From Myxococcales bacterium (GTDB lineage Bacteria; Myxococcota; UBA727; GCA-2721815), in NCBI GenBank assembly GCA_002721815.1, contig PBLQ01000061.1, positions 108,905-172,904 of the forward strand: a DNA stretch of 64,000 nucleotides, written 5' to 3'. The position numbers were made by a program, and so were the translations under genes. The notes under the pieces were generated by a model. The model was not told the DNA's origin. It saw only the letters and a list, made by a program, of their open reading frames with translations, and did no database searches. Positions 1,145-61,283 of this stretch are shown here, piece after piece (the first letter of the stretch is position 1; every line of letters begins with the position of its first letter).

Positions 1145-2329
1145 TCAAGCGACGATCGTCGGCGCATCTCCAAAAGAGATGCCCACCGAACGTGCGGCCT
1201 GTATCCAGGCGGAGGAAGGCTCAACGGGACGCGGGGTTCGAATACTTTCCAGGAGTGGTACGCTGACCACTTGGGGGGTTTTGAGGGCCACCATACGCCC
1301 CCAATCGCCATTGGCGGCCAAATCCGCCGCTTTTGCGCCGAAGGCGGTGGCCAACATGCGATCGAAGGCCGTTGGGGAGCCGCCCCGCTGTAAATGGCCC
1401 AAGACTGTTACGCGGGTTTCCATTTCGGTGGCGGCAGATAATTTTTCAGCCACCCACTGGCCAATGCCCCCCAATTTAACCTTTCGTCCTGCTTGTTGTT
1501 CAGGACTCAGTGTTTGGGTGATGGAACTGCCATCTTGGGTTTTGGCACCTTCGGCCACCACCACGATGGAGAAATGGCGCCCATACTGCTTCCGTCTTTT
1601 GATTTTCTGAACCACCGGTTCCCATTGGAAGGGGATTTCGGGGATTAAAATGACGTCGGCACCGCCAGCGAGGCCCGCTGCGACAGCAATGTGACCCGCG
1701 TCGCGGCCCATCACCTCTACCACCATGATTCGGTCGTGGGCCTCCGCGGTGGAATGGAGCATGTCGATACAATTGGTGGCGGTTTGAACCGCCGTGTGGT
1801 GACCAAAAGTCCAATCGGTTTGTGAAACATCATTATCAATGGTTTTTGGAACACCCACCATGGGGATTTGGTGCTCCCGGGACAGTCGCTCCGCAATACT
1901 CAATGTGCCGTCACCGCCGATGCAAATGAGACCTTCCAGCCCCGAAAGGTCGAAGTTTTTCTTTAATTTTTCTGATAAATCAGTGAGTTGGATGGTGCCA
2001 TCCTTTTGTTGGACGGGAAAACCGAATGGGTCGCCATGGTTGGTGGTTCCCAAGATGGTGCCGCCCATGGATAAAATACCACTCACATTGCCCAAATTAA
2101 GGACTTTAAGGCGGGTGGGAGATTCCATGAGACCATTGAAGGCATCTTCGATGCCCACCGGTCGGATTTGATAGTGCCGAATCAGCCGGTGGACTGCTCC
2201 GCGAATGACGGCATTGAGCCCTGGGCAATCACCGCCGCCAGTGAGAATCCCGATTTTGCGCTGTAAACTGTGTTCAATAGATTCTTCGGCCATTTTTGCG
2301 TCCTTTAGCCATTTAAGCCCCCTTTTCAA
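1145..2329 (-). CDS. pfkA: 6-phosphofructokinase (ATP- or PPi-dependent; cannot be told apart by eye).
   Basis: 394 aa with PFK family motifs: GGDGTLS, CIGGDGT-like, MGR and the IPKTIDND-like VPKTIDNDV. Same strand as the kinase 110 nt downstream. Confidence 0.8.
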   Translation of the reverse strand: MKRGLKWLKDAKMAEESIEHSLQRKIGILTGGGDCPGLNAVIRGAVHRLIRHYQIRPVGIEDAFNGLMESPTRLKVLNLGNVSGILSMGGTILGTTNHGDPFGFPVQQKDGTIQLTDLSEKLKKNFDLSGLEGLICIGGDGTLSIAERLSREHQIPMVGVPKTIDNDVSQTDWTFGHHTAVQTATNCIDMLHSTAEAHDRIMVVEVMGRDAGHIAVAAGLAGGADVILIPEIPFQWEPVVQKIKRRKQYGRHFSIVVVAEGAKTQDGSSITQTLSPEQQAGRKVKLGGIGQWVAEKLSAATEMETRVTVLGHLQRGGSPTAFDRMLATAFGAKAADLAANGDWGRMVALKTPQVVSVPLLESIRTPRPVEPSSAWIQAARSVGISFGDAPTIVA

Positions 2330-2394: not shown

Positions 2395-4185
2395 ATGACA
2401 ACCACCGTATATAGCATTTTTAAGGACACTGTCTCAAACATGGGCAGCCGTGTGGCGGCCAGGTATAAAAAAGACGGTCAATGGCATGATGTGACATGGA
2501 GCGAAATGAACGCTCAAGTCAATCAAATCGCAGCCGCATTGGCAGCACTTCAAATTGAAAAAGAAGAGCGTATCAGTATCATTTCAAATACCCGGTATGA
2601 GTGGGTGGCAGCGGACATGGGCATCTTGGGGGCCTGTTGTACCACAGTACCGATTTATCAAAGCAGCATTCCCGGCGATATCGAATACATCCTTAACGAT
2701 GCGGGTGTGGTGGCCATATTCGCTGAAGACAGCATTCAGCTCGAGAAACTAAGAGGCCTGCGCAAAGAGATCCCAAATGTCAAAAAGGTGATTTGCTTTA
2801 ACGACGCAGACGTAGACACGAGCAGCGATTGGGAAATTAGCTGGTCACAATTCCTCCAAGGGGGGTCAGACTACTTGGTTGAGAACCCCTCGGTGGTGGA
2901 ACAACGTACCGCCGCCATCAAAGCAGATGATTTGTTGACCTTGGTTTACACGTCCGGCACCACTGGGCGCCCCAAAGGCGTGATGATCACCCACGACAAC
3001 ATGGTGTATGAAGCTGAGGCCATCTACAAAGTGGGCCTCATTGGACAAGACGACAACCAGTTATTGTTTTTGCCCCTGGCCCACATTTTCGCCAAGGTCT
3101 TAGAAGTCACTTGGCTCAAAGCGGCACATGTCATGTCTTTTGCTGAGGCCATCGACAAAGTGGTAGAGAATATGGCCGAAGTGCGACCGACTTTCATGGC
3201 CTCTGTGCCTCGTATTTTCGAGAAAGTTCACGCCAAAGTGGTGGGGGGCGCCAGTTCCGCACCCGGCATCAAGGGTAAGTTGGCACGTTGGGCATTGGCC
3301 AAGGGTGAAGAAGCAGCCAAGCAATCCATGAAAGGTGAGACGCCGAGTGGTTTGGGCTGGGCGTTGGCGCAAAAGCTGGTCATTTCCAAGATTGCCGTCA
3401 AACTCAAAGAGCTTTTCGGCGGGCAGCTGCGCTTCTTTGTTTCCGGCGGTGCACCCTTGTCTCCCGATATTGCTTATTTCTTTGCGCAAGCCGACGTGAC
3501 CATCCTCGAAGGCTATGGCCTTACAGAGACATCCGCAGCCACTTGTGTAAACAATCCAGGTGAAGAGCGTATTGGCACTGTGGGTAACGCATTGCCTGGC
3601 ACCGAAGTGAAAATTGCCGAAGACGGAGAAATTCTGATCCGCGGTCGTGGTGTGTTCAAGGGGTACTGGAACCGCGAAGAAGCCACCGCTGAGGCCATCA
3701 CTGAAGACGGCTGGTTTAAAAGTGGCGATATTGGCGTCATTGAAGATGGCTATGTTCGCATCACCGACCGTAAGAAAGACATCATTGTGACTGCCGGTGG
3801 TAAAAACATCGCGCCGCAAAACATTGAGAACCTTGTTAAAAGCAAGTGTCCCTTGATCAGCCAAGTGGTGATTCACGGTGACAAACGCAAGTTTCTTTCA
3901 GCGTTAATCACTCTAGATGAAATTACGTTGACGGACTGGGCCAAGAGTAATGAAATTTCTGGTGATTACGGCTCTTTGACTCAAAACGATCAAGTTCGCC
4001 AAGTGGTGGACAGTGCCATCGAAATCGTCAACAACGATTTGGCGCGTTATGAAACCATCAAGAAATATGATGTGCTGGAGAAAGATTTTAGCATTGAGTC
4101 CGGCGAGCTGACACCTTCCATGAAAGTGAAACGCAACGTCATCAACAAAAATTACCAAGAGCGCTACGACGCCTTTTACGCTTAA
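2395..4185 (+). CDS. Long-chain fatty-acid--CoA ligase (AMP-binding / FACS family).
   Basis: 596 aa. AMP-binding motif YTSGTTGRPKGVMITHDNM and the TGD...GY...ITDRKKD C-terminal core. RBS AAGGAGGGGG before the ATG. Confidence 0.85.
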   Translation: MTTTVYSIFKDTVSNMGSRVAARYKKDGQWHDVTWSEMNAQVNQIAAALAALQIEKEERISIISNTRYEWVAADMGILGACCTTVPIYQSSIPGDIEYILNDAGVVAIFAEDSIQLEKLRGLRKEIPNVKKVICFNDADVDTSSDWEISWSQFLQGGSDYLVENPSVVEQRTAAIKADDLLTLVYTSGTTGRPKGVMITHDNMVYEAEAIYKVGLIGQDDNQLLFLPLAHIFAKVLEVTWLKAAHVMSFAEAIDKVVENMAEVRPTFMASVPRIFEKVHAKVVGGASSAPGIKGKLARWALAKGEEAAKQSMKGETPSGLGWALAQKLVISKIAVKLKELFGGQLRFFVSGGAPLSPDIAYFFAQADVTILEGYGLTETSAATCVNNPGEERIGTVGNALPGTEVKIAEDGEILIRGRGVFKGYWNREEATAEAITEDGWFKSGDIGVIEDGYVRITDRKKDIIVTAGGKNIAPQNIENLVKSKCPLISQVVIHGDKRKFLSALITLDEITLTDWAKSNEISGDYGSLTQNDQVRQVVDSAIEIVNNDLARYETIKKYDVLEKDFSIESGELTPSMKVKRNVINKNYQERYDAFYA

Positions 4186-4208
4186 GCCTTTAAGCAACTG
4201 GAGGCGCA

Positions 4209-5156
4209 TTGGCCTTGGTTGATAAAAAAAGCGTGGATGAACTCCTGTTGAGCCGCTCCCTCATTTTGGTGAGCGGCAAGGGAGGCGTTGGGAAGACTGC
4301 CATCAGTTCTGCATTGGCCTGCCGGGCCAAGGAACTGGGGCGGCCCGTCTTACTCTTTTGTTGTGATGCACCTTCTGAATTAAAACCTTTTGCCAATGGC
4401 AAGGTCTTGAATGCCGAGGTGCGAGAAATCCTTCCACGGTTGTGGGGGGTGAACCAGCAAACCGAAGAGGCGGTCTATGCCTATTTGGTGGATGCACTCA
4501 AATCCAAAAAACTTGTGGATGTGATGTTTCGCAACAAAGTCGCACGAGCATTTTTACAGGTGGCACCCTCAGTTGGTGACTTGGCAATGATGGGTCGTAT
4601 TTTTCAGCTGGCCCAATCATTTACTAAAAAACACCAAGGTCTGTTGATTGTGGATATGCCCGCCACGGGGCATGCACTGGCCATGTTAAAAAGCCCAGAG
4701 GCCATTGCGAATATTTTGGTAGCGGGTCCTGTTTACGATCGTGCGCGCGAAATCGTGGATTACTTTAAAAACCAAAATAAAACCACCTTCCTACCGGTTA
4801 CTTGGCCAGAAGAGTTGCCCATTACTGAAGTGATCGAATTAATTGACGGGGTGCTACAGACTGGGGTCGGGGTGGGACCGGTACTGCTCAACGGAGTGGT
4901 GTCCAACCCAATCCCTTCGTTGCCCGAAAATGCTTGGTCCCAAATGCGAGAATTGGGGGCCTTGGCCGAGCATCAAAAGTGGGTAGATTACCTTCGGGTT
5001 TGGTCTCACCGGGTGAACCGCGAACGCAGCCGTTTGTTGGTCGCCCTCAAAGAAAAACTACCAGAGGAAAATGCACTTTTAGATTTTCCATTTTTGAGTC
5101 GCGTACCGCCAACCAGTTCTTTGGGTGCTGAGTTGGCCAATGCATTGGCAGGGTGA
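4209..5156 (+). CDS. ArsA/Get3-family P-loop ATPase, half-size, with the DTAPTGH-like motif.
   Basis: TTG start with GGAGG 6 nt upstream. Deviant Walker A GKGGVGKT; the DMPATGHALAML signature resembles ArsA DTAPTGH. 315 aa, about one ArsA half. Confidence 0.7.
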   Translation: MALVDKKSVDELLLSRSLILVSGKGGVGKTAISSALACRAKELGRPVLLFCCDAPSELKPFANGKVLNAEVREILPRLWGVNQQTEEAVYAYLVDALKSKKLVDVMFRNKVARAFLQVAPSVGDLAMMGRIFQLAQSFTKKHQGLLIVDMPATGHALAMLKSPEAIANILVAGPVYDRAREIVDYFKNQNKTTFLPVTWPEELPITEVIELIDGVLQTGVGVGPVLLNGVVSNPIPSLPENAWSQMRELGALAEHQKWVDYLRVWSHRVNRERSRLLVALKEKLPEENALLDFPFLSRVPPTSSLGAELANALAG

Positions 5157-6339
5157 TGTTTTGTCCGTAAAAAAAATCATCAGCGAAAGTCAAATTGTCG
5201 TCGTGGTAGGCTCCGGCGGTGTGGGCAAAACCACATCTGCATGTGGATTGGCATTGGCATCGGCCCGGACGGGAAAAAAAGTGGCGTTGCTGACCATTGA
5301 TCCCGCCAAACGCTTGGCGCAAGCCTTAGGGCTCGATGCGTTGAACAACCAGCCCCAAGCCTTGCATGCCGACTTGGTGGGAGAGGGCGCAGTGGATGCC
5401 ATGATGCTCGAGCCCGCGGAGACTTTTGATAACCTCATACGCAGCGCTGTGGCCACTGAAGCGTTGGGTGAGAAACTACTCAAAAATCGTTTGTACCAGC
5501 TCATTGCGCGCACGCTCGGCGGCATGCAGGAATACATGGCAGTGGAGAAATTGTACGATCTGACAGAGTCTCAAAGATATGACATGATCGTGGTGGATAC
5601 GCCGCCATCCGTGAATGCGCTCGTATTTTTAGACGCGCCACGCAGGATGTATACATTCTTCTCAGACAAGATTGTTCGGTTTTTTGTGCGTGAAGAAAAA
5701 AAGAAATCCAACTTCATCAAAAGGATGAAAGACAAAGTGGGTGACGTTGCTATTTCGGTTTTACGCAAAACGCTTTCTGAAACTTTTATGGATGATCTGA
5801 TTGAAATGGCCACAGCCTTTCAAAGCCTATTTGTAACTTTTCGTCGCCGTGGGGAAACGGTCGAGCGTTTATTGCGGGCGCGAGGAACCAATTTCGTTTT
5901 GGTGACGGGACCCGATCCGCTTCGCGTTCAAGAGGCGTCTGATTACCTGACCATCTTACGCCAATTAGGCGTCGACCCCAACCTGTGGATTGTCAATCGC
6001 GTCCATTGTTCTCCAGATAAAGAATGCTCGTTTGAAGACAGTGATGTTCAAGAATGGATAGATGCTTTTTCTCCTGAAGAAGAGGCAGCGTTCGCTGACA
6101 TGAATGCCACAAGCCTTTGCAAAGAATTCAATGCCGCTGCTCAGTTGGCCACTGACTTAAAGCAACGCGATGACCTCGGACTGCGCCAAATTAAACAACT
6201 GATTGGCGGCACTCCCATGATTAGAGTGGAAGCATTCACGGAAGAAGTGGAAGACGGACAGGCGGTTGAACAGTTTGTTCAAGCCCTGAATTCCTTCGAT
6301 CAGGGGCTCACCGTCACCCAAGCAGCCACGCCCAAGTGA
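5140..6339 (+). CDS. Second ArsA/Get3-like P-loop ATPase, divergent half.
   Basis: Deviant Walker A VVVVGSGGVGKTT, and VVDTPP in place of the DTAPTGH motif. The start overlaps the upstream ArsA-like gene (ATG 5140; GTG 5125 is an alternative). Confidence 0.65.
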   Translation: MHWQGDVLSVKKIISESQIVVVVGSGGVGKTTSACGLALASARTGKKVALLTIDPAKRLAQALGLDALNNQPQALHADLVGEGAVDAMMLEPAETFDNLIRSAVATEALGEKLLKNRLYQLIARTLGGMQEYMAVEKLYDLTESQRYDMIVVDTPPSVNALVFLDAPRRMYTFFSDKIVRFFVREEKKKSNFIKRMKDKVGDVAISVLRKTLSETFMDDLIEMATAFQSLFVTFRRRGETVERLLRARGTNFVLVTGPDPLRVQEASDYLTILRQLGVDPNLWIVNRVHCSPDKECSFEDSDVQEWIDAFSPEEEAAFADMNATSLCKEFNAAAQLATDLKQRDDLGLRQIKQLIGGTPMIRVEAFTEEVEDGQAVEQFVQALNSFDQGLTVTQAATPK

Positions 6340-7595
6340 TCACTGGGTTCTGTGGCTTCTTCCAAATCTCCAAAGGTGCGACGTTCTGTGAAGACGATTT
6401 CGCTTTTCGTAACGTAAACTCTTTTTTCGGTATCGCGCACAAACAGGTGATCCATTCGAGATGGGAACTCGGTCCCTCCGTATTGTTCAAAATACAGTGC
6501 GTTGCAGTCTGAGGCGGTAAAGTTGACAGCATTGTGCGTTTCACACCAATCGGCTTCACCACCAGGGATGTCTAAACTCTGCTCTGGATTATTCACCACT
6601 GCCTGTCCCTCGGTGATGTCGAGCAATGCTTTTTCAGGGGTTCGGCCCATTTGCACGAGGTCAACAAAATCTGCGTAATGGGTGAACAAGGTATAGCTGA
6701 TGGTATTTGCCCACCATCCGTCCGTTTCCTCGTTGGCACCGGTGGTCCAGACATCCGTGTCGTAATAGGAGCCCGCATTCATATCACCGCCCAAAAAGAC
6801 CACATCTTCGGCATTTGAGTGATCCAAGACGTGCAGGGATAATTCTCGTGCCTCGGCCATGCGGACGCCCCAGTTGTACCACCATGGCATCATGTGAGTG
6901 TTGTACACATGAAAAGTACCCAAGGTTTCATGTTCAAAAGATAGGTGTATGAAGCCGCGTTTGATTCCCGGTCCAGGAAAATATTCCAAGCCGTCGCGTT
7001 CTGCGTAAGCAACGCCGCCGGTGGTCACAAAGGCCTCATCTTTAACGATGTCTTTTTTGACCAAAGTGAGACAGCCATCGTTGTATTCGTTGCGGGGGCC
7101 GACGTGGACCATATATCCGGCTGCTTCGCCCACTTCGGTAAAGCGCGTCACATCCGCATCGAGCCAAACCTCTTGGAGCATGAGAATGTCATAATCCTCA
7201 TTGATGATGAGGTCTGGGAGTTCTTTTTGACGCTCAGCCAAATCAGGGCTTTGGGACCAATCGATGAATCCAAAGATTTGGGCATCTAAAAGCGCCACAT
7301 TATAACTGAGAACACTAAGGGAGCCCGATGACTCGGATCGTTGCGCATTGGCTTCTTGATGGCTTTGAAGAAGTGCGGTGGGGTCGGGGGCGCTCTCAAA
7401 CGCCACATGATTGGGATCGAAAAGGTCAGCCACTGTGAGGTCTGCGGAGTTTACCAGGGCGCTATGGATGTGCGCCAGGGCGGAGGCATCCGATAGTTTT
7501 ACCTGATCCTTATCGTGCTCCCCCACGCCTTTAGGCAAAGAATCACAGGCCGTCCAAAGGCCCAACACCAATGATAATCCAACAATTTTAAGCAT
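6300..7595 (-). CDS. Endonuclease/exonuclease/phosphatase (EEP) family lipoprotein.
   Basis: Internal start MLKIVGLSLVLGLWTAC (signal plus lipobox) with a GGAGGG RBS. EEP motifs LMLQEVW, SYNVALLD and DHLGVAAWV. The longer upstream ORF extension is unlikely to be translated. Confidence 0.65.
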   Translation of the reverse strand: MLKIVGLSLVLGLWTACDSLPKGVGEHDKDQVKLSDASALAHIHSALVNSADLTVADLFDPNHVAFESAPDPTALLQSHQEANAQRSESSGSLSVLSYNVALLDAQIFGFIDWSQSPDLAERQKELPDLIINEDYDILMLQEVWLDADVTRFTEVGEAAGYMVHVGPRNEYNDGCLTLVKKDIVKDEAFVTTGGVAYAERDGLEYFPGPGIKRGFIHLSFEHETLGTFHVYNTHMMPWWYNWGVRMAEARELSLHVLDHSNAEDVVFLGGDMNAGSYYDTDVWTTGANEETDGWWANTISYTLFTHYADFVDLVQMGRTPEKALLDITEGQAVVNNPEQSLDIPGGEADWCETHNAVNFTASDCNALYFEQYGGTEFPSRMDHLFVRDTEKRVYVTKSEIVFTERRTFGDLEEATEPSDHLGVAAWVTVSP

Positions 7596-7712: not shown

Positions 7713-9869
7713 ATGGCTGAAAACAAAGAAAAGCATTGGAAAAACACGCCTTCTCATTGGCAGCAAAAAGCCCAAAAAGAGTTGCGCGACCGCCCCTTAG
7801 ACGACTTGCTCTGGGAGACACTGGAGGGCATTCCCCTCAAACCGCTCTACACAGCTGAGGACCTTGAAGGTCTGGAGGGACTGGATGCCTTACCCGGTGA
7901 TGCACCCTTTACGCGGGGACCTAGGGCAACCATGTATGCCAACCGACCTTGGACCATCCGCCAATATGCAGGGTTTTCCACGGCCAAAGAATCCAACTTG
8001 TTTTACCGAAAAAACCTGGAAGCCGGTCAAAAGGGATTGAGTGTTGCTTTCGATTTGGCCACCCACCGCGGCTACGACTCTGACCACCCACGGGTGCAGG
8101 GCGATGTGGGCAAGGCAGGTGTGGCCATCGACAGTGTTGAAGACATGAAAGTTTTGTTTGATGGGATTCCTTTGGACAAAATGAGTGTGTCCATGACCAT
8201 GAACGGGGCTGTTTTACCCATCATGGCGGCCTACATTGTGGCGGGTGAAGAGCAAGGTGTGCCCACCGAAAAATTATCTGGCACCATCCAAAACGACATT
8301 CTCAAAGAGTTCATGGTTCGGAACACTTATATTTACCCGCCCGCGCCATCCATTCGTGTCATCGGCGATATCATTGCTTATACGGCTGAAAAAATGCCCA
8401 AGTTCAATTCCATTTCCATCAGCGGTTACCACATGCATGAAGCGGGCGCTGATTGCGCCTTGGAATTGGCCTACACTTTGGCTGATGGGCTGGCTTACGT
8501 GCGCACCGCTTTGGCTCGCGGTCTTCCCATCGATAGTTTTGCGCCGAGACTGTCCTTTTTCTTCGCCATCGGAATGAATTTTTACATGGAGGTGGCGAAG
8601 TTGCGGGCTGCCCGAATGCTCTGGGCCAAGCTCATGTCACAATTCAATCCTCAAAATCCCAAGTCTCTGATGTTGCGAACGCATTGTCAGACCAGTGGGT
8701 GGAGTTTGACGGCCCAGGATCCGTACAACAACGTCATTCGAACCACAGTTGAGGCCATGGCGGCTGTCTTTGGTGGAACGCAAAGTTTACACACCAACGC
8801 ATTCGATGAAGCACTGGCTTTACCCACGCCTGAATCAGCGCGGATTGCACGTAACACCCAACTGATTCTTCAAGAGGAAACCGGATTGCCCAAAATCGTC
8901 GATCCCTGGGCGGGTTCCTATTTTATGGAAAAGCTCACCCGAGATTTGGCGGACCGCGCACAGGTTATCATTGATGAGGTCGAGGATTTGGGGGGCATGG
9001 TCAAAGCCCTCGCTGCGGGTGTACCGAAGCTTCGCATTGAAGAAAGTGCGGCCAAACGGCAGGCACGTATTGATTCAGGGAAAGAGGTCATCGTTGGTGT
9101 GAACAAATACCAACCGGCAGAGGAATCTCCGATCAACCTGCTCGACATTGACAATGCAGAGGTGCGTGACCAGCAGGTGGCTCGTTTACAAACGCTCAAA
9201 GCAAATAGAGACGAGGCCAAGGTTCAAGCGGCACTCGATGCACTTACTGATGCTTGCGACGACGAACAGCAAAACTTACTTTCGCTGACCGTGACAGCCA
9301 TGCGCTGTCGCGCTACAGTGGGAGAAGTTTCCAACGCACTCGAGAAAAAATGGGGGCGGTACAAGGCGGAGGTTCAAACGGTGGCAGGGGTCTATCGCGC
9401 ACAATATGGCGATGAAGATGCGTTTCAAGCGTTCCTTACCCGGGTCGAGGCTTTTGAAGAACAAGCCGGTCGTCGGCCACGTATTTTGGTGGTGAAGCTG
9501 GGGCAAGACGGCCATGACCGAGGCGCCAAAGTGGTGGCCACTGGTTTTGCCGACCTGGGATTCGATGTGGATGTTGGACCACTTTTTCAAACGCCCGAAG
9601 AGGCCGCTCGACACGCGGTGGAAAATGACGTCCATGTGGTTGGGGTATCTTCCTTGGCAGCGGGCCATCAAACACTGGTGCCCCAATTGGTGAAGGCTTT
9701 GGCCGATGCGGGAGCCAGTGATGTGGCCGTGGTCGTAGGTGGGGTTGTCCCCAAGGATGATTACGAGGCGCTCAAAAGCAGTGGGGTAGACGCCATTTTT
9801 GGTCCTGGTACCCCTATCATCGAGGCGGCGGGCTCAGTTTTAGACGCGATATCGAATAAAGGGGGCTGA
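7713..9869 (+). CDS. Methylmalonyl-CoA mutase, single-chain (catalytic TIM barrel plus C-terminal B12-binding domain).
   Basis: 718 aa. FTRGP...[13 protein letters not shown]...[15 protein letters not shown] mutase core, and the C-terminal [30 protein letters not shown] (DxHxxG B12 motif). Confidence 0.9.
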
Positions 9870-9875
9870 TGGCCT

Positions 9876-10859
9876 ATGGGCACAGAAGAGCTCGTACAAT
9901 CCATTCAAAGCGGATCCAGACGCGCACTGGCCAAGGCCATTACGCTGGTGGAAAGTCAAAAACACCATCACATTTTAGATGCCCAAGCTTTGTTGGCCCA
10001 GCTCGACCAATCCCAAAACAATACATTGCGTGTGGGCATCAGCGGCCCGCCGGGCGTTGGAAAGAGTACCTTTATTGAGGCTTTGGGCTTGTATTTAATT
10101 GGGCTTGGCAAAAAGGTTGCGGTGTTGGCTGTAGACCCCACAAGTCCCATCAGTGGTGGGTCCATTTTGGGTGACAAAACCCGAATGGAGCGATTGAGTC
10201 AGAATGAATCGGCTTTCATTAGGCCTTCGGCTTCTGGGGGCCATTTGGGTGGGGTGGCCCGTCAAACTCGCGAAGCTTTGGTTCTGTGCGAAGCAGCTGG
10301 CTATGATGTCATCCTGATCGAAACGGTCGGTGTCGGTCAATCTGAAATTGAAGTGGCCCACATGGTGGATTTCTTTTTGTTGCTTCTGCAGCCTGGTGGG
10401 GGTGATGAGCTTCAAGGTGTGAAGAAGGGCATCTTGGAAATGGCGGACTTGCTGTTGGTAAACAAGGCCGACGGTGAGTTGGTTGATATCGCCAAAAAGA
10501 CCCAACAAGAATACAAACGGGCAGCCTCTTTGTTGCGTCGCAGTAAAAACAGTGCACTGGTCACTTTTTCAATTAGCGCGCTTTCTGAAGTCGGCATTGA
10601 TAAAGTGTGGGATTGGTTGGTTCAAAGCCATGATGCTGCTAAAGCAGCAGGCACCTTGGCGGAGAATAGAAGTCTCCAAGCTCAGCATTGGATGCGCGCC
10701 ACCGCCGAAAAAGAATTACTTCAGCGGTTTTGGAACCATCCTCAGGTCGCGCAACTGGTCACCGGCAAACAGCACCAGGTCCAAGATGGAACATTACCGC
10801 CGACCCAAGCAGCATTGGACCTCCTTCAGGCCTTCGGGTCTCCAAATTCCAGCAAATAG
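9876..10859 (+). CDS. meaB: Methylmalonyl-CoA mutase-associated GTPase MeaB/ArgK.
   Basis: P-loop GISGPPGVGKST and VDPTSPISGGSILGDKTRM are typical of MeaB. Sits immediately downstream of the mutase. Confidence 0.9.
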   Translation: MGTEELVQSIQSGSRRALAKAITLVESQKHHHILDAQALLAQLDQSQNNTLRVGISGPPGVGKSTFIEALGLYLIGLGKKVAVLAVDPTSPISGGSILGDKTRMERLSQNESAFIRPSASGGHLGGVARQTREALVLCEAAGYDVILIETVGVGQSEIEVAHMVDFFLLLLQPGGGDELQGVKKGILEMADLLLVNKADGELVDIAKKTQQEYKRAASLLRRSKNSALVTFSISALSEVGIDKVWDWLVQSHDAAKAAGTLAENRSLQAQHWMRATAEKELLQRFWNHPQVAQLVTGKQHQVQDGTLPPTQAALDLLQAFGSPNSSK

Positions 10860-10864
10860 GTTTC

Positions 10865-11791
10865 ATGCCCGTGAAGAAATTTCAGCTAACCCAGCACGCT
10901 GCCGAGATGGCCTCATATTATAAAGAGAACGGGTATGTTGTTATTGAGAATTGCATCAATGACGATGACATCAACCAGTTTTTGACGGCATACGAACGGA
11001 CCAAGCGAAGTCGGACGTTTGTATATTACTCCCAATCCATCCATAAATGGATCAAACCTCAATTGTCTTCGGCGGGCTACATCGTCGAGTCTTTCGAGAA
11101 TGCCACCCGCTTGGTCAATGCGCCGTCTTTTGCGCAAGCCATAAAAAAGATTTTGTTTCATGAGAAAATATCGGAAGCTCTTACCGCTGTAAGTGGTTTT
11201 GAGCAGTTCGTCTCGTGGCAAGATATGTTTTTTGACCGATCCACTGGGACCATTGATCACCAAGATTCATGGTATCTCGACACCAGGCCCAATGGGTATT
11301 TGGTGGGGGCTTGGTATGCGCTCGAGGACATCCACCCGGAGTGCGGTCCCTTTTACGTTTATCCAAAAAGCCACGCGCTCCCCAGGCTTGAACGGCATTT
11401 AGACCATGATGAGTTCAGAAAAAAATCCTTAGATCAGATCACAGCGGCGAAAATTACCAAGGAAAAAGCCATGCTGCGTAAAGGCGATTTGTTGCTGTGG
11501 CACCCCTTTTTGTTGCATGGATCCGAAAGCTGCGAAAACGAAGCGCATTCCAGGAAATCATTTACCTCTCACTTTTTTCCTTTGGGGTTTGCTCGTGACA
11601 TGAAAGGGGAAACGTCAAGTCCGGTGGAGGTGTTGCGACGCGACCTCAACCGTTTAGAGCCAACTTTCAATCGGAATATTTTTCAAATACACGACGTGAA
11701 CCCTTACATATTTACGGGTAAAGGAATCCTCAAGGCCCTGCTTCAAAACAGAGAGGCCATCAAAGACATGCGTCGCTCATCTTATGAGTAA
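10865..11791 (+). CDS. Phytanoyl-CoA dioxygenase (PhyH) family Fe(II)/2-oxoglutarate oxygenase.
   Basis: HQD (His-x-Asp) plus the distal WHPFLLHGS motif. Start trimmed to the ATG 6 nt after the meaB stop; the longer ORF overlapping meaB was rejected. Confidence 0.6.
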   Translation: MPVKKFQLTQHAAEMASYYKENGYVVIENCINDDDINQFLTAYERTKRSRTFVYYSQSIHKWIKPQLSSAGYIVESFENATRLVNAPSFAQAIKKILFHEKISEALTAVSGFEQFVSWQDMFFDRSTGTIDHQDSWYLDTRPNGYLVGAWYALEDIHPECGPFYVYPKSHALPRLERHLDHDEFRKKSLDQITAAKITKEKAMLRKGDLLLWHPFLLHGSESCENEAHSRKSFTSHFFPLGFARDMKGETSSPVEVLRRDLNRLEPTFNRNIFQIHDVNPYIFTGKGILKALLQNREAIKDMRRSSYE

Positions 11792-41873: not shown

Positions 41874-43703
41874 GTGTCAGCCTTTCTGCTCAAAAACCCA
41901 CGAAGTCACAATTGTAACCAACTCACCAAGGACAATCTCAACGAAGAAGTGGTCCTGATGGGCTGGGTGAACAGCTTGCGCGATCATGGCGGCCGACGCT
42001 TTGTTGATCTTCGCGATCGATACGGCTTAACGCAAATCGTATTTAAGCCCGAAACCGACGAAGCTTTGCATCAGTTGGGCCATGCCATGCGAAATGAGTG
42101 GTGCATCGGCATTCGCGGTGTGGTGGAAGATCGTGTGGCCAATGGTGGGGCACCCAACACCCGTCTGACCACAGGCGAAATCGAAGTGAACGTGTTAGAG
42201 GTGGAAGTGTTTAATGCCGCGGAAACACCGCCCTTCATGGTTGAAGATAATGTGGACACCCATGAAGAAAAGCGGTTGCAACATCGAACCATCGATCTGC
42301 GGCGTGCACCCATGCAGCGTAATTTCATCATGCGTCACAAAGTGGCCCAGGCGGCTCGACGCGCATTAGATGACGACGGGTTCTTAGAAATCGAAACGCC
42401 CATGCTGGTGAAATACACGCCAGGTGGGGCGCGTAACTTTATTGTGCCTTCGCGTTTACACCCAGGCAGCTTTTACGCCTTGGCTGAGAGCCCCCAGTTG
42501 TACAAACAAATGTTGATGATGTCGGGTTTCGATCGTTATTTCCAAGTGGTGAAATGCTTTCGTGATGAAGATTTACGCGGCGACCGTCAACCTGAGTTTT
42601 CTCAAATCGATTTGGAAATGAGCTTTGCTTCGGAACGTACGGTCCAAGAGGTGATCGAGCGGTTGGTTACTCGAATTTTTAAAGACGTACTCGATCATGA
42701 CTTGCCTCAAGTCTTTCCGAGCATGACTTACCATGAGGCCATGACCCGTTTTGGTTCGGATAAACCAGACACGCGATTCGGCTTAGAGTTGAAAGATCTG
42801 ACGGCTTGCCTCAAAGACATTGGGGGCGGCGGTGTTCCTCTGTTCGCTCAAACCATCGACCGGGGTGACATTATCAAATCCATGGTGGTGCCCAAAGCAA
42901 ACCCCATGTCACGCAGTGAAGTAGACAAGCTAGAGGGCTTGGTGAAGTCTTTAGGTGGTTTTGGTTTGGGACGGGCGAAAGTCGGGGAGGATGGCGCTTC
43001 TTGGACCCAATCACCGTTCTCCAAACACGTGACGCCGGAAGGCATTCAAGCCATTCATGAGGCCACGGGTGCACAGCCAGGCGATTTAATTTTGTTTCAA
43101 ATGGGTAAGGCCAAATTAGTGAACACCGTGTTCAATGGACTGCGACTCAAACTCGGCGCTCAGTTCGGTCTCATTCCTGAGAGTGGCCCCGATGCTTGGC
43201 ACGTGATGTGGGTCACTGACTTCCCGTTGTTTGAGCATGACGAAGAGAGCAATACTTTTGCTGCCGCGCACCATCCGTTCACATCCCCCCAAATGGGCCA
43301 TGAAGACAAGTTAAAAACCGACCCCGGTGCCTGTCTCAGTCGTGCCTATGATTTGGTGATTAACGGAAACGAAATTGGTGGGGGCTCCGTCCGGATTCAC
43401 GATCAAGAAGTTCAAGCCAAAGTATTTGATGCCATGGGCATCGGTGAAGAAGAGAAACAGGCCAAATTTGGTTTTCTCCTGGACGCGCTCAAATATGGTG
43501 CGCCACCTCATGCGGGCGTGGCGTTGGGCTTGGACAGGCTCTGTATGCTCTTGTCGGGGACTCAATCCATTCGAGATGTGATCGCATTTCCCAAAACACA
43601 GCGCGGACAAGACGCGGTGACTGGTGCGCCCACGCCTGTGGATCTACAGCAGTTGAATGAGGTTTATATCGCTTCTACCGCTCCTGACGATGAAGACGAT
43701 TAA
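41874..43703 (+). CDS. aspS: Aspartyl-tRNA synthetase.
   Basis: RSHNCNQL N-terminus, class II motifs FRDEDLRGDRQPEF (motif 1/2 region) and GGGSVRIHD...G(L)DRL (motif 3), plus the GAD insertion. Confidence 0.95.
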   Translation: MSAFLLKNPRSHNCNQLTKDNLNEEVVLMGWVNSLRDHGGRRFVDLRDRYGLTQIVFKPETDEALHQLGHAMRNEWCIGIRGVVEDRVANGGAPNTRLTTGEIEVNVLEVEVFNAAETPPFMVEDNVDTHEEKRLQHRTIDLRRAPMQRNFIMRHKVAQAARRALDDDGFLEIETPMLVKYTPGGARNFIVPSRLHPGSFYALAESPQLYKQMLMMSGFDRYFQVVKCFRDEDLRGDRQPEFSQIDLEMSFASERTVQEVIERLVTRIFKDVLDHDLPQVFPSMTYHEAMTRFGSDKPDTRFGLELKDLTACLKDIGGGGVPLFAQTIDRGDIIKSMVVPKANPMSRSEVDKLEGLVKSLGGFGLGRAKVGEDGASWTQSPFSKHVTPEGIQAIHEATGAQPGDLILFQMGKAKLVNTVFNGLRLKLGAQFGLIPESGPDAWHVMWVTDFPLFEHDEESNTFAAAHHPFTSPQMGHEDKLKTDPGACLSRAYDLVINGNEIGGGSVRIHDQEVQAKVFDAMGIGEEEKQAKFGFLLDALKYGAPPHAGVALGLDRLCMLLSGTQSIRDVIAFPKTQRGQDAVTGAPTPVDLQQLNEVYIASTAPDDEDD

Positions 43704-46435
43704 GAATTTTCGGTCATAAATTTGAGCCAGAGCAGGGTCCCATCCTGGTCGGTTTGCAGTGACGCTGGATGGCGAAGTTCAATGCGCAATGAAACGCGGT
43801 GCCGGCCATCTTCCTCCACATGGGGCAAGAGCCGCACCACGCTGGCATCAATATCCGAGGCGTCCAAAATACGTCTCACTTTCAGATTGCCTGCGCGTGT
43901 GTCTAAGAGTTCGACAATATAGGTTGTCGGACTTTCTTGTTTGACCGAATACTTTGCGCCCCCGCTGATTTGAACCCCAACGCTACTGCTTGCGTCTTTG
44001 TTTTTTACCACCATGAGACGGTTGAGCACGTTACGGCCCGGTTCATCATTTTTTGGGTTTGACAGCCCACCAAAGCGCCGCGTTGCTTTCTTTTCCACTG
44101 GAACCTGCCAGTATTGGTTTTTGAAATGTAGGATTTGTGCAGTGAGACGATCTTCATTGGGTGTGGGCTTCATTTGAGTCTCAGGGGTGTCAGCCCTATT
44201 GTCGCGGCGGGATAATTTGAGTTCTTCTTGTTTTTGATTTCGCAATTCGAAGATCTCTTTTTGCAAGTGATGTTTTTCCTGGGCCATTGTTTTCATCTGT
44301 TTTTGGACCTCTTCGAAGTGCTGGACTTGCGCCAATCGTTTTTTCTCATTCGCTTTTTCGAGGTCTTGGGTCTGTTGGAGCGATGTCCGAATGGCTGCTT
44401 CTTGGGTTTTTAAATCATTAAGAATCTTGGTCTTGGCTTTTTCTTGCGCCGCCCTTTGCTGGAGCAGTTCATCCATCTTCTTTTTTTGTTGGGATAAAGC
44501 CATGAGACGGGCTTCTTGTTCTGCTTGAAGGGACGATTTCTCTGCCAATGTTTGACTCAGTTCCGTTTCCTGCTTTTGTAGGTTTTGAAGCTGTTTCTTT
44601 TGCTGCTCTTGCTCAGCGCTGATGAGTTGGATTTCTTTTTCCATCTTTGCTTTCAGGCCCGCCAGGTGCTTCAGCTCTGTTTGGTGATTGCTTTGAATCT
44701 TTTGGTGTTGGGTTAACAAGCGGTCCTGATCGGTTTGGGCGATTTGTTGGTGTTCAATATAAGCCTGTCGCTTCGCTGCCAATTGTTGTTCAAGCGTCAC
44801 ACGCTCGGTCTTTAACCGACGCAATATTTGCTCTTCTTTTCGCATCAAGCGTCGCTTTTGCTGAAGTTTTTCTTGTTGTTCTTCTTCTGTTTCAGCGAGG
44901 AGGATTGCCTTTTCGTTTTGGGCCAACTGCAGTTCTGTTTGCAGCTTGAGCCTTTGGGCTTGAAGGAGGTTGACCGCGTGGGTCTCCTGTCGCAACAGTT
45001 GCTCCTTTTCTTCGATAATAAGTTCTTTCTCTTCTTTCGATTTCTTCAGAAAAGCTTTGTGTTGTGACTGGTATTGCTGGATTTCAGTCTTCAGTTTTTT
45101 TCGGGCCGTTCGCAATGTCTCTATTTCACTACGTTTTTGCTTGAGTTCCGCTTCTTTTTCGAGGAGTGCTGCTTGTCTTTCCAATCTGAGTGCTTCTCGC
45201 TCTTTTTGACCTCTGGCCAAAGCTTGTAAGAGCTCTTTGTGAGCGAGTGATTGGTTGTGCAGTTCCTGTTGCAGTCGCGTTTTTTCATCTACGAGAAATT
45301 CGAGTTCTTTTTGTTCCTTTTCTATATTGACCAAATTTTGTTGTCGCTTTTTGGCGGCTTGGGTGAGGGCCCGCAGACTGACTTCTTCATTCTTTTTTCG
45401 CTTCACCAAGGCGTTGATTTCATTTTGGAGCTTTTGCTTACGGTCTTTTTCATTGGCCCATTCATTGTCCATTCGCGTGTTGAGGGTTTGGGTTTGGATT
45501 TGGATGGTGGCGAGCGTTTCTTGTGCTTCTTGGAGTTCCCCTCTCAACTCAAAGAGCTGGTGAGAGGCGGTGTCACTCTTTTGCGTTAATTTTTCCAGTT
45601 CTGCTGATTTGCGTTCGTACATGCCTTCCAAGAGCTTGATGTCTTGCAGGCGTGCCTGACGCTCCGCTTGGTTTTTGGTCACTTCTCGTTGCTGAGTGTT
45701 TCTGGTTTGTCGTGTTTCTTGTAACAGGGTCAGCATTTCTTCCCGTTTTTCTTGGGTGGCTTGGAGCATGTCTCTGTGTCGTTGGTCTTGCTGCAAAACC
45801 TTCTCGTGCAACTGGGCCAACAGTTTTTCTTTGTTGGCTTGTTCCTGGAGCAGTTGTTTTTGGTGGGTTTCCAGGATTTTCGCGGTCCGGTTGACTTCTT
45901 TTTTGAGTCGTTGGAGTTCTTTTTGGGTTTTGGCCTGTTCCTGTTTGATGAGGCTTTGTTCGGCTCGAGCGGCTTTTTCCAGTTGGGTGCGGGCTTGAAA
46001 ACGCTTTTTCTTCAGGGTGATGAGGGCCTTTTTTTCTCCTAAGTAGTTGAATTCAAAAGCAATACCCCTTTTTTGGCCTTTGATTGCGTATTCCACCGGG
46101 CCATTGAAGATCAGCAGGGCGCGGGGGTTTTGAATGTGGCGCCCCTGCCGTTGCTCGAAAATGATGTCGTGCAATAAGAGCCCGTCGGGGATTTTCGGGG
46201 TGGGCAAGTCGGAAATGTTCACCCCGGGCAGATCAATGGCATAGCGATTGTCTTCTCCCAGACTGTAGATTTGAAAGCCGGGCAACTTATTGCCCTGAAT
46301 GCGAAAGACCGCTTTTTCGTGTCCGTCCAAATGAATGGAGACTTTTTCAATTTTGGATGGTGTGGCCCAGACCGTTTGCCCGGCGCAAACGGTGACCAAA
46401 AACAAAAACAAAGAAAGGCGGGTTAGGTGTTGCAT
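43700..46435 (-). CDS. Periplasmic giant coiled-coil protein: signal peptide, N-terminal AMIN-like domain, ~600-aa Q/E/K-rich coiled coil, C-terminal AMIN-like domain.
   Basis: MQHLTRLSLFLFLVTVCAGQTVWA signal. KVSIHLDGHEKAVFRIQGNKLPGFQIYSLGEDNRYAIDLPGVNI matches the AmiC/PilQ AMIN pattern (...RLVIDLPG...). Continuous heptad-like EQ/KL-rich sequence follows. Confidence 0.55.
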   Translation of the reverse strand: MQHLTRLSLFLFLVTVCAGQTVWATPSKIEKVSIHLDGHEKAVFRIQGNKLPGFQIYSLGEDNRYAIDLPGVNISDLPTPKIPDGLLLHDIIFEQRQGRHIQNPRALLIFNGPVEYAIKGQKRGIAFEFNYLGEKKALITLKKKRFQARTQLEKAARAEQSLIKQEQAKTQKELQRLKKEVNRTAKILETHQKQLLQEQANKEKLLAQLHEKVLQQDQRHRDMLQATQEKREEMLTLLQETRQTRNTQQREVTKNQAERQARLQDIKLLEGMYERKSAELEKLTQKSDTASHQLFELRGELQEAQETLATIQIQTQTLNTRMDNEWANEKDRKQKLQNEINALVKRKKNEEVSLRALTQAAKKRQQNLVNIEKEQKELEFLVDEKTRLQQELHNQSLAHKELLQALARGQKEREALRLERQAALLEKEAELKQKRSEIETLRTARKKLKTEIQQYQSQHKAFLKKSKEEKELIIEEKEQLLRQETHAVNLLQAQRLKLQTELQLAQNEKAILLAETEEEQQEKLQQKRRLMRKEEQILRRLKTERVTLEQQLAAKRQAYIEHQQIAQTDQDRLLTQHQKIQSNHQTELKHLAGLKAKMEKEIQLISAEQEQQKKQLQNLQKQETELSQTLAEKSSLQAEQEARLMALSQQKKKMDELLQQRAAQEKAKTKILNDLKTQEAAIRTSLQQTQDLEKANEKKRLAQVQHFEEVQKQMKTMAQEKHHLQKEIFELRNQKQEELKLSRRDNRADTPETQMKPTPNEDRLTAQILHFKNQYWQVPVEKKATRRFGGLSNPKNDEPGRNVLNRLMVVKNKDASSSVGVQISGGAKYSVKQESPTTYIVELLDTRAGNLKVRRILDASDIDASVVRLLPHVEEDGRHRVSLRIELRHPASLQTDQDGTLLWLKFMTENS

Positions 46436-47028
46436 GCGTCCCTCGTGTTTGAACAAGTTCTCGACATTAACAACCCGATCCTGATCGTCAACTTTATGAA
46501 CGTTTTTAAAGGGTTCGCAGCGTCGAGACTTGTAGTTTTTTCAGGGCCGAAGAAAAAGAGCGAGACCGCGTTTGAGAAAGTGTTGCGAGTTGATTGGAGT
46601 GGGAGGCGGCGCTCGCTCCAAGGGCATTCTTGCAGCACCACTTGAGGTTGCCCCTTTAAGTCCTTGAAAATGATCCAATTTTAAAATTTCGAGGGCTGGG
46701 TTTTGTGAGGCAAACCCCTGCTGCGGGCGCCGGGTCATCCAGTGGAAAAAAGGTGGGATAAACGCCTACTGTTTGCAAAGGTGGATGGCTCAGGCTGATG
46801 GAGTGGCTCTAATAGAGCCAAGGTGGAATGGCCGTGGTGGGATGTGCGTCAGAAGCCCAAAGCGGCTTTAATGAGTGTTTGAGGGCAAAAAAAGCGGTTT
46901 GGCACCCAATTTTTGCAAAAACCCATGGAAAACGAGGGGCATAATAGGTAGGTTTCACCGGATTTTGATTCAGGCTCGAGACCCCATCTGAGGGGATCAA
47001 GGCCCATTCGCTTATAAGGAGACAGATA

Positions 47029-61196: not shown

Positions 61197-61283
61197 GCGG
61201 CGGTGGCGGAACTGGTAGACGCGCTACGTTGAGGTCGTAGTGGCCAATTGGCCATGGGAGTTCGAGTCTCCCTCGCCGCACCA
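61197..61283 (+). tRNA. tRNA-Leu (anticodon GAG), type II with long variable arm, CCA encoded.
   Basis: Acceptor GCGGCGG/TCGCCGC. Anticodon stem CTACG/CGTAG with loop TTGAGGT. Variable-arm hairpin GGCCAATTGGCC. T-arm GGGAG-TTCGAGT-CTCCC. Discriminator A plus CCA. Confidence 0.9.

Follow-up and report, generated by a model that had tools for sequence, protein, structure and literature searches.

In ATPases of the SIMIBI class, a signature lysine reaches across to the nucleotide held by the partner subunit. Get3, one such ATPase, is a homodimer, often bridged by zinc through a CxxC motif, that works with Get1, Get2, Get4 and Get5; ArsA of E. coli carries a metalloid-binding site made of Cys113, Cys172 and Cys422. 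Bacterial Get3-like proteins are diverse, and their half-size and double-size or tandem forms have already been surveyed (PMC6593721). BagA and BagB (Rv3679 and Rv3680) of Mycobacterium tuberculosis were the first described members of a widespread bacterial family. They were crystallized as a two-chain, Get3-like heterodimer, each protein being a chain of its own (PDB entry 6BS3, 'ADP-bound bacterial Get3-like A and B in Mycobacterium tuberculosis'). In M. tuberculosis, bagAB is reported to shield the cell from glycerol-derived toxicity, methylglyoxal and nitric oxide (PMC10597346), and mutants of Rv3679/Rv3680 show altered antibiotic survival (PMC12216072). Here we analyze a 64-kb stretch of DNA from a Myxococcales bacterium (contig PBLQ01000061.1; the whole stretch is called the window below), in which two adjacent ATPase genes, ORF1 (4209-5156) and ORF2 (maximal open reading frame 5125-6339), follow an acyl-CoA ligase gene. 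The reading that we favor, and consider probable, is that ORF1 and ORF2 are separate, translationally coupled genes for the two subunits, A and B, of a Get3-like heterodimeric SIMIBI ATPase of the BagA/BagB (Rv3679/Rv3680) type, and that they close a predicted operon of three genes, the first of which encodes a FadD11-like ligase.

Three closely spaced open reading frames (ORFs) lie on the plus strand of the window, at 2395-4185, 4209-5156 and, in maximal form, 5125-6339, with ORF1 and ORF2 in different frames. A first-pass annotation of the DNA had described two half-size ArsA/Get3-family ATPase genes behind an acyl-CoA ligase, each with one deviant Walker A motif. Both observations hold: the ORFs are present at those positions, the P-loops read GKGGVGKT in ORF1 and GSGGVGKTT in ORF2, and both products pass the Pfam ArsA_ATPase cut-off of 24.3 bits (ORF1, 77.9 bits, E=1e-21; ORF2, 98.9 bits). 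The proteins were compared by Pfam, by 23 NCBIfam models, by phmmer against the PDB, and by AlphaFold2 single-chain models searched with Foldseek; L-numbers denote database loci compared with the window, L078 being a longer contig that carries the window's own pair. The features are as follows (aa, amino acids).

2395-4185, plus strand: FadD11-like acyl-CoA ligase, 596 aa, with AMP-binding PF00501 (261.6 bits) and AMP-binding_C_3 PF23562; ANL superfamily
4186-4208, plus strand: 23-nt spacer between ligase and ORF1, with a GGAGG Shine-Dalgarno at 4198-4202, 6 nt ahead of the TTG start at 4209
4209-5156, plus strand: bagA-like gene, putative subunit A, 315 aa, ArsA/Get3 fold by Pfam, NCBIfam, PDB and fold matches; TTG start
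4275-4298, plus strand: ORF1 deviant Walker A GKGGVGKT, signature Lys at position 2
4653-4673, plus strand: ORF1 switch II DMPATGH (within VDMPATGH)
5125-6339 (maximal), plus strand: bagB-like gene, putative subunit B; likely start ATG 5140 or TTG 5161
5209-5235, plus strand: ORF2 P-loop GSGGVGKTT, without the signature Lys
5293-5331, plus strand: ORF2 switch I block TIDPAKRLAQALG, identical in M. tuberculosis BagB
5596-5622, plus strand: ORF2 switch II equivalent DTPPSVNAL (within VVDTPPSVNAL), no TGH

The assignment is carried above all by ORF2. Its top NCBIfam model was BagB (NF053621, 256.4 bits, profile positions 4-368 of 371), with TIGR00345 at 88.6 bits and ArsA at 57.5 bits. By far its best PDB match was 6bs3_B, M. 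tuberculosis Rv3680 (E=5e-54, residues 16-363 on 18-350); between the two proteins the TIDPAKRLAQALG block is identical, and QEYMA-EKL and VVDTPPS-NAL are nearly so. The AlphaFold2 model of ORF2 (pLDDT 80.8) retrieved the same chain at Foldseek rank 1 (E=5.2e-23, TMt 0.74, 33% identity), with rank 2 at 1e-15 and 6bs3_B seven orders of magnitude before any Get3. In this model a long helical insert (about residues 157-246, with a low-confidence loop at 185-201) occupies the place of the Get3 client-binding subdomain and groove. Sequence and predicted fold agree in making ORF2 homologous to M. tuberculosis BagB (Rv3680) over its full length.

The motifs of ORF2 are those of its family. Position 2 of the BagB-type P-loop is S, P or A, and GKGGVGKT occurs in one of 171 ORFs; the M. 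tuberculosis form is GAGGVGKTT. Most switch I residues (T, I, D, P, A, R, L, A, Q, L and G) are invariant in the clade alignment, and switch II reads DTPP-x-x-[NH]AL (DTPPSxNAL) across the family in place of DTAPTGH. All of the BagB signature motifs, namely G[SAP]GGVGKTT without the signature Lys, the TIDPAKRLAQALG block and DTPP-x-x-[NH]AL, are found in ORF2. More than 7,800 BagB homologues were recovered at E<=0.001 among 8,000 candidates scored. The BagA/BagB family reaches far beyond Actinomycetota.

ORF1 resembles BagA less closely. BagA was its top NCBIfam model (NF053622, 69.7 bits, cut-off 400), phmmer matched it to 6bs3_A at E=7.5e-13, and its AlphaFold2 model (pLDDT 87) gave top Foldseek TM-scores of 0.72-0.73 to 6bs3_A/B. 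Its P-loop, GKGGVGKT, is the prevailing form among 127 BagA-like ORFs, and its switch I is degenerate (CCDAPSE). The first-pass annotation had stated that only the first gene keeps a DxxPTGH switch motif; a TGH ending is indeed confined to ORF1, whereas the motif itself is a strict D-x-P-x-T-G-H, unlike the D-T-A-P-T-G-H of ArsA. Where BagA-like partners have a recognizable switch II (n=54), the motif ends in H in 41 cases, in R in 11 and in Q in 2, the R-ending form being the M. tuberculosis type (DAPPTGR). Across the sampled family, His is thus the majority ending of switch II in subunit A. In 124 of 168 related loci the gene just upstream of BagB, on the same strand, is a BagA-like ORF, and about 20 of the others have too little upstream sequence to tell. 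BagA-model scores of these positional partners grade continuously, from 133-151 bits in Acidimicrobiia and Patulibacter to 57-70 bits in the window's clade. Because BagA-like ORFs so often precede BagB and their scores grade into the BagA model, we assign ORF1 as the putative BagA-type partner, an assignment weaker in sequence than that of ORF2 and settled by position upstream of BagB. The pair thus fits a known family with NCBIfam models and a two-chain structure, and the 'split ArsA' label of the first-pass annotation is not supported.

The two subunits differ in which catalytic motifs they retain. This difference had been taken to mirror the A1 and A2 halves of fused ArsA. In the alignment with E. 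coli ArsA, both A1 and A2 carry DTAPTGH, where ORF1 has DMPATGH and ORF2 has DTPPSVN; because both ArsA halves keep the motif, the comparison fails, and the ORF1/ORF2 asymmetry is instead, by motif comparison, a family-wide BagA/BagB pattern. By analogy with 6BS3, Get3 and ArsA, the subunits would pair face to face and create two composite nucleotide sites at their interface. These sites would be asymmetric and complementary: subunit A would give the signature Lys and the TGH-ending switch II along with its degenerate switch I (CCDAPSE), and subunit B would give the canonical, invariant TIDPA switch I while lacking both the signature Lys and TGH. ATP binding and hydrolysis may open and close the helical subdomains in the manner of the Get3 clamp. 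The most economical model would be an ATP-driven open-close clamp on a hydrophobic client.

The spacing of the three genes is that of an operon. The ligase stop at 4185 and the ORF1 start at 4209 leave a gap of 23 nt, one fewer than the 24 nt first given, and the TGGAGGCG motif of this spacer is also found in L081, a 78% identical relative. Within the ligase-ORF1 interval no terminator-like site or hairpin was seen; the promoter and terminator scan as a whole was at or below shuffled expectation, with nothing above chance. The tight link, the Shine-Dalgarno and the lack of a visible terminator support the suggestion of the first-pass annotation that the ligase is co-transcribed with the pair, which we consider likely in this predicted operon.

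The junction between ORF1 and ORF2 depends on the start codon of ORF2. The maximal start, GTG 5125, gives 404 aa and a 32-nt overlap with ORF1, and the start in the public annotation, ATG 5140, gives 399 aa and a 17-nt overlap. L081 shows a stop, 5 nt and then an ATG ('MSVAQII') that aligns with TTG 5161 of the window ('LSVKKII'); a start there gives 392 aa and a 4-nt spacer in place of the overlap. From this alignment, a 4-nt spacer appears at least as likely as an overlap, so the earlier claim of overlapping genes holds for the first two starts and fails for the third. Translational coupling is compatible with either arrangement. The ORF2 protein is 100% identical to CMH56_15370 of the marine metagenome-assembled genome (MAG) 'Myxococcales bacterium' and occurs on 14 contigs, among them contigs of GCA_002471515.1, GCA_002298025.1 and a Logan assembly.

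The ligase is itself a FadD-type enzyme. FadD11 (NF038343) leads its NCBIfam matches with a full-length hit of 368.5 bits, short of the 950-bit cut-off, and its nearest PDB relatives are FadD13 and other acyl-CoA synthetases. A ligase orthologue (about 750-1330 bits) was found upstream of the pair in L078-L089, and L171 has at that place an AMP-binding gene of the same Pfam architecture. The ligase survey covered 12 distinct lineages whose BagB is at least 43% identical to that of the window.

About 600-aa FadD-like ligase upstream, same strand: window/L078, L081, L083, L085, L086, L087, L089 and L171 (8 of 12 lineages)
Ligase nearby, opposite strand: L088 (1 of 12 lineages)
No ligase within 8 kb: L090, L170 and L172 (3 of 12 lineages)

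Farther out, none of about 155 distant loci, from Actinomycetota, Polyangiaceae and other groups, had an orthologous ligase within 6-8 kb, the only related signal being a weak 92-bit AMP-binding match in L125. The neighborhood conservation that the first-pass annotation proposed to check is thus found in most lineages of the clade and is absent from the rest and from the distant loci: ligase adjacency is clade-specific, and not universal even in the clade. Clustering of neighbors in the distant loci produced no general partner, only lineage-specific genes of Acidimicrobiia (a STAS-domain protein, a pyridoxal phosphate-dependent decarboxylase, an alpha/beta hydrolase and a weak PAP2 match).

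In ligase-bearing relatives at 44-47% BagB identity, a gene for a protein of about 430-450 aa separates the ligase from bagA, except in L088, where this gene lies next to the ligase. Six such loci were confirmed to carry it, as was L090, where it lies upstream of bagA without a ligase nearby; for L089 the only sign is a gap of the right length. Those of the protein sequences that were examined combine an N-terminal signal peptide with a C-terminal F5/8-type-C (discoidin) domain, PF25302 'NADase_transloc', and some also have an FG-GAP repeat.

Interposed secreted protein: L083 5561-6844; L085 5680-7014; L086 5556-6893; L087 5720-7027; L090 5165-6931; L171 5495-6847

No gene for this protein was found anywhere in the 64-kb window. 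Downstream of the pair, genes differ wholly between loci: an endonuclease/exonuclease/phosphatase (EEP) protein with methylmalonyl-CoA mutase, radical SAM with PMT_2, DUF2330, or trypsin. The order and strand of ligase, discoidin protein where present, BagA and BagB are kept down to 44-47% BagB identity. Because the downstream genes vary while the upstream block persists, some selective retention can be argued. Upstream of the ligase and divergent from it lies a gene for ATP-dependent phosphofructokinase (window 1145-2293, minus strand), with a Ser/Thr protein kinase beyond (L078 2097-3896, minus strand). In several relatives (L081, L083, L085 and L171) these two genes are kept together with the ligase.

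Several results weigh against the reading that we favor. The ORF2 score of 256.4 bits lies below the BagB equivalog cut-off of 521; an Acidiferrimicrobium (Actinomycetota) homologue, at 355 bits, falls under it too, and as the model is tuned to mycobacteria, a score below its cut-off counts against equivalog status and not against family membership. For ORF1, the A2 half of E. coli ArsA comes first in phmmer against the PDB (E=2.4e-17), above 6bs3_A; the lead of BagA (69.7 bits) over the generic Get3/ArsA model TIGR00345, the next best at 62.5 bits, is marginal; and Foldseek E-values for Get3, TRC40 and both 6BS3 chains are about equal, with no separation. The pair is, by these scores, a distant Myxococcota-type member of the BagA/BagB family below the NCBI equivalog cut-offs, and any functional equivalence to the mycobacterial proteins would be tentative. 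Heterodimer formation is predicted from the two chains of 6BS3, and ATPase activity of the pair is putative. Finally, the ligase is missing from three of the 12 lineages and from the distant loci, and since it travels with the phosphofructokinase/kinase block, its link to the pair could be inherited gene order and not functional coupling.

Other accounts of what the pair is fit the evidence less well. That the two ORFs are one fused gene broken by a sequencing or assembly frameshift near 5125-5156 is a concern that the first-pass annotation had flagged, and the databases do hold proteins that resemble BagA-BagB fusions, P0119 (674 aa) and P0120 (641 aa). Their linkers, however, are rich in Arg, Ala and Ser, as in out-of-frame translation of high-GC DNA, which makes artifacts the likelier explanation. 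Moreover, the ORF1/ORF2 junction is identical in three independent assemblies, L081 has an in-frame stop and a spacer between its bagA-like and bagB-like genes, and two genes are found in 124 of 168 loci; because the M. tuberculosis proteins are also separate chains in 6BS3, the two-gene layout is the native state of the family. We regard the two genes as genuine and give a frameshift next to no credence. P0119 and P0120 were also considered as Rosetta-stone evidence and rejected, the C-terminus of P0120 likewise looking like frameshifted translation; both are probably products of assembly or gene calling. A two-piece arsenite/antimonite pump ATPase, with ArsA split into A1-like and A2-like genes, would account for the Pfam ArsA_ATPase match of both products and for the ArsA A2 half as the top PDB hit of ORF1, and single-domain ArsA-like pairs do sit in arsenite resistance operons of some Firmicutes (PMC6593721). 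Yet on the ArsA equivalog model (TIGR04291, cut-off 650) the pair scores just 46 and 57 bits, and ORF2 has no DTAPTGH. In the alignments the equivalent of C422 is Ser in ORF1, and C113 falls on a residue other than Cys in ORF2; no alignment was obtained over the C172 region, and no cysteine of either protein (ORF1 38/51/52; ORF2 40/295/301/332) falls where C172 would, nor at the C113 and C422 sites. Tblastn with E. coli ArsR, ArsB and ArsC over the 64-kb window found none (best E=0.68; ACR3 and thioredoxin-type ArsC were not queried directly), and the L078 flanks (about 7 kb upstream and 8 kb downstream) hold no arsenic-related gene among their Pfam annotations, in line with the first-pass statement that no ars genes are nearby. 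The split-pump account is effectively refuted, with a very small probability left to it. Given the lack of arsenic context, the first-pass proposal of a Get3-like role other than arsenite export is the best reading. In its strict form, with the pair as a genuine Get3-type targeting factor that picks up tail-anchored proteins by their C-terminal transmembrane segments and brings them to the membrane, this proposal draws on the Get3 fold of both models, on cargo-bound Get3 structures among the matches of both fold searches, on the position of the ORF2 helical insert, and on the name 'Get3-like' chosen by the 6BS3 depositors. It is nevertheless quite improbable: both proteins fall under the cut-off of 135 for TIGR00345 (Get3/ArsA/TRC40; ORF2 88.6, ORF1 62.5), the cysteine positions leave no CxxC zinc motif in either, the operon contains no Get1/Get2-like receptor or tail-anchored candidate, the neighboring protein of the relatives bears an N-terminal signal peptide and not a tail anchor, and there is to date no indication of tail-anchored protein targeting by bacterial homologues (PMC6593721).

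What the BagA/BagB-type pair does is a matter on which the gene neighborhood points two ways. The pair may be a BagAB-type heterodimer whose place behind the ligase is merely inherited, serving as an ATPase of general stress protection (tolerance of methylglyoxal and nitric oxide, as in mycobacteria) that has no tie to acyl-CoA or lipid metabolism. The ligase-free loci (the roughly 155 distant ones and L090, L170 and L172) speak for this, as do the phosphofructokinase and kinase genes conserved alongside the ligase, just as simple synteny predicts, and the known phenotypes of glycerol and nitric oxide toxicity (PMC10597346). Against it, the order and strand of the ligase-(discoidin)-BagA-BagB block persist to 44-47% identity although the downstream genes all differ, and the spacing is operon-like, with a 23-nt gap and a Shine-Dalgarno. 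We hold stress protection without a lipid tie to be a possible, if tentative, explanation. A true functional partnership between ligase and pair is likewise doubtful, though worth entertaining. It would be speculative to go further and propose a hydrophobic client, be it a small molecule or a protein, with ties to acyl-lipid or envelope metabolism, on which the clamp might act downstream of, or together with, the co-encoded ligase. Still less likely is the fullest version, in which BagAB of the Myxococcota-type clade would be the dedicated partner of a long-chain acyl-CoA ligase, mostly along with the secreted FG-GAP/discoidin protein, in a module for a hydrophobic, acyl- or lipid-linked envelope client. 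If true, genomic context would for the first time hint at the client of the BagAB family as a whole, and such a module would fit an M. smegmatis selection in which fadD6, bagA and bagB mutants had a common phenotype.

Only the setting is new: in this marine lineage a fatty-acid-activating enzyme usually precedes the pair, and the pair itself belongs to a described family. The clade-specific order of ligase, discoidin protein where present, bagA and bagB is a modest clue that can be tested through the hypothesis of a lipid- or acyl-linked client and a ligase-BagAB interaction. The assignment also corrects the public labels 'arsenite-transporting ATPase', 'anion transporter' and 'hypothetical protein' on these genes.

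Other features of the window and of the related loci are recorded here. An EEP-family gene (PF03372, window 6300-7595, minus strand; annotated form 431 aa, beginning MLKIVGLSLVLGLWTAC, lipoprotein-signal-like) overlaps the 3' end of ORF2 convergently with its own 3' end by 40 nt (6300-6339) and marks the end of the ligase-bagA-bagB unit. Directly downstream, at 7713-11791 on the plus strand, are methylmalonyl-CoA mutase fused with a B12 domain, a MeaB G-protein chaperone and a PhyH-family dioxygenase, and from these genes the region is rich in acyl-CoA metabolism; the mutase and MeaB recur only in L081, the 78% relative, where the PhyH gene is missing, and do not extend to the wider clade. A solo BagB-like gene without an adjoining BagA-like gene occurs in Polyangiaceae-type and other Myxococcota-type loci (L002, L005, L006, L009, L013, L015, L017, L018, L019, L025 and L071; match at about 6001-7100), with dnaB confirmed upstream in L005 and DnaB-like ORFs clustering in 14 loci. 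Farther along the window, an AT skew of -0.49 and a GC content of 0.462 at 44-46 kb coincide with a minus-strand gene (43700-46456) for a 918-aa, Gln/Lys/Glu-rich, apparently coiled-coil protein with an N-terminal signal-like segment, and the skew is due to codon content, not to a foreign insert. Rfam and tRNA scans of the window returned one tRNA-Leu only (61197-61283).

Set beside the known systems, the window pair shares the SIMIBI fold and deviant Walker A of ArsA (E. coli R773, PDB 1F48) and its pseudo-dimer logic, in which two homologous halves build the nucleotide sites at their interface, and ORF1 shares its TGH-ending switch II. ArsA is one polypeptide of about 580 aa with two halves, encoded in ars operons; the window has two polypeptides, TGH in one only, and no ars genes. 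With Get3/TRC40 of eukaryotes and archaea the pair has in common the fold with a helical client-binding subdomain, and many of the top structural matches are Get3 proteins. In contrast to the Get3 homodimer, the pair would be an obligate-looking heterodimer, to go by 6BS3, without CxxC and below the TIGR00345 cut-off. It matches neither the single-domain ArsA pairs of Firmicutes nor the Myxococcales 'Group 8' proteins, tandem two-domain Get3 homologues that are single polypeptides with CxxC (PMC6593721).

The closest counterpart is M. tuberculosis BagA/BagB (Rv3679/Rv3680; 6BS3, 6BS4 and 6BS5; NF053622 and NF053621). The hosts differ, a marine Myxococcota-type MAG for the window pair against Actinomycetota, as do the switch II of subunit A (DMPATGH, with an ArsA-like His, against DAPPTGR) and the gene context, the FadD11-like ligase operon of the window having no equivalent in any sampled actinobacterial BagA/BagB locus. 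Identity to 6BS3 in the Foldseek alignments is about 21% for A and 33% for B. The subunits are of comparable length (315 and about 399 aa in the window, against chains of 340 and 394 aa), and both share the fold. As in M. tuberculosis, subunit A carries GKGG-GK[ST], subunit B aligns end to end and has a P-loop without the signature Lys, and the two genes are adjacent in the same order, A then B.

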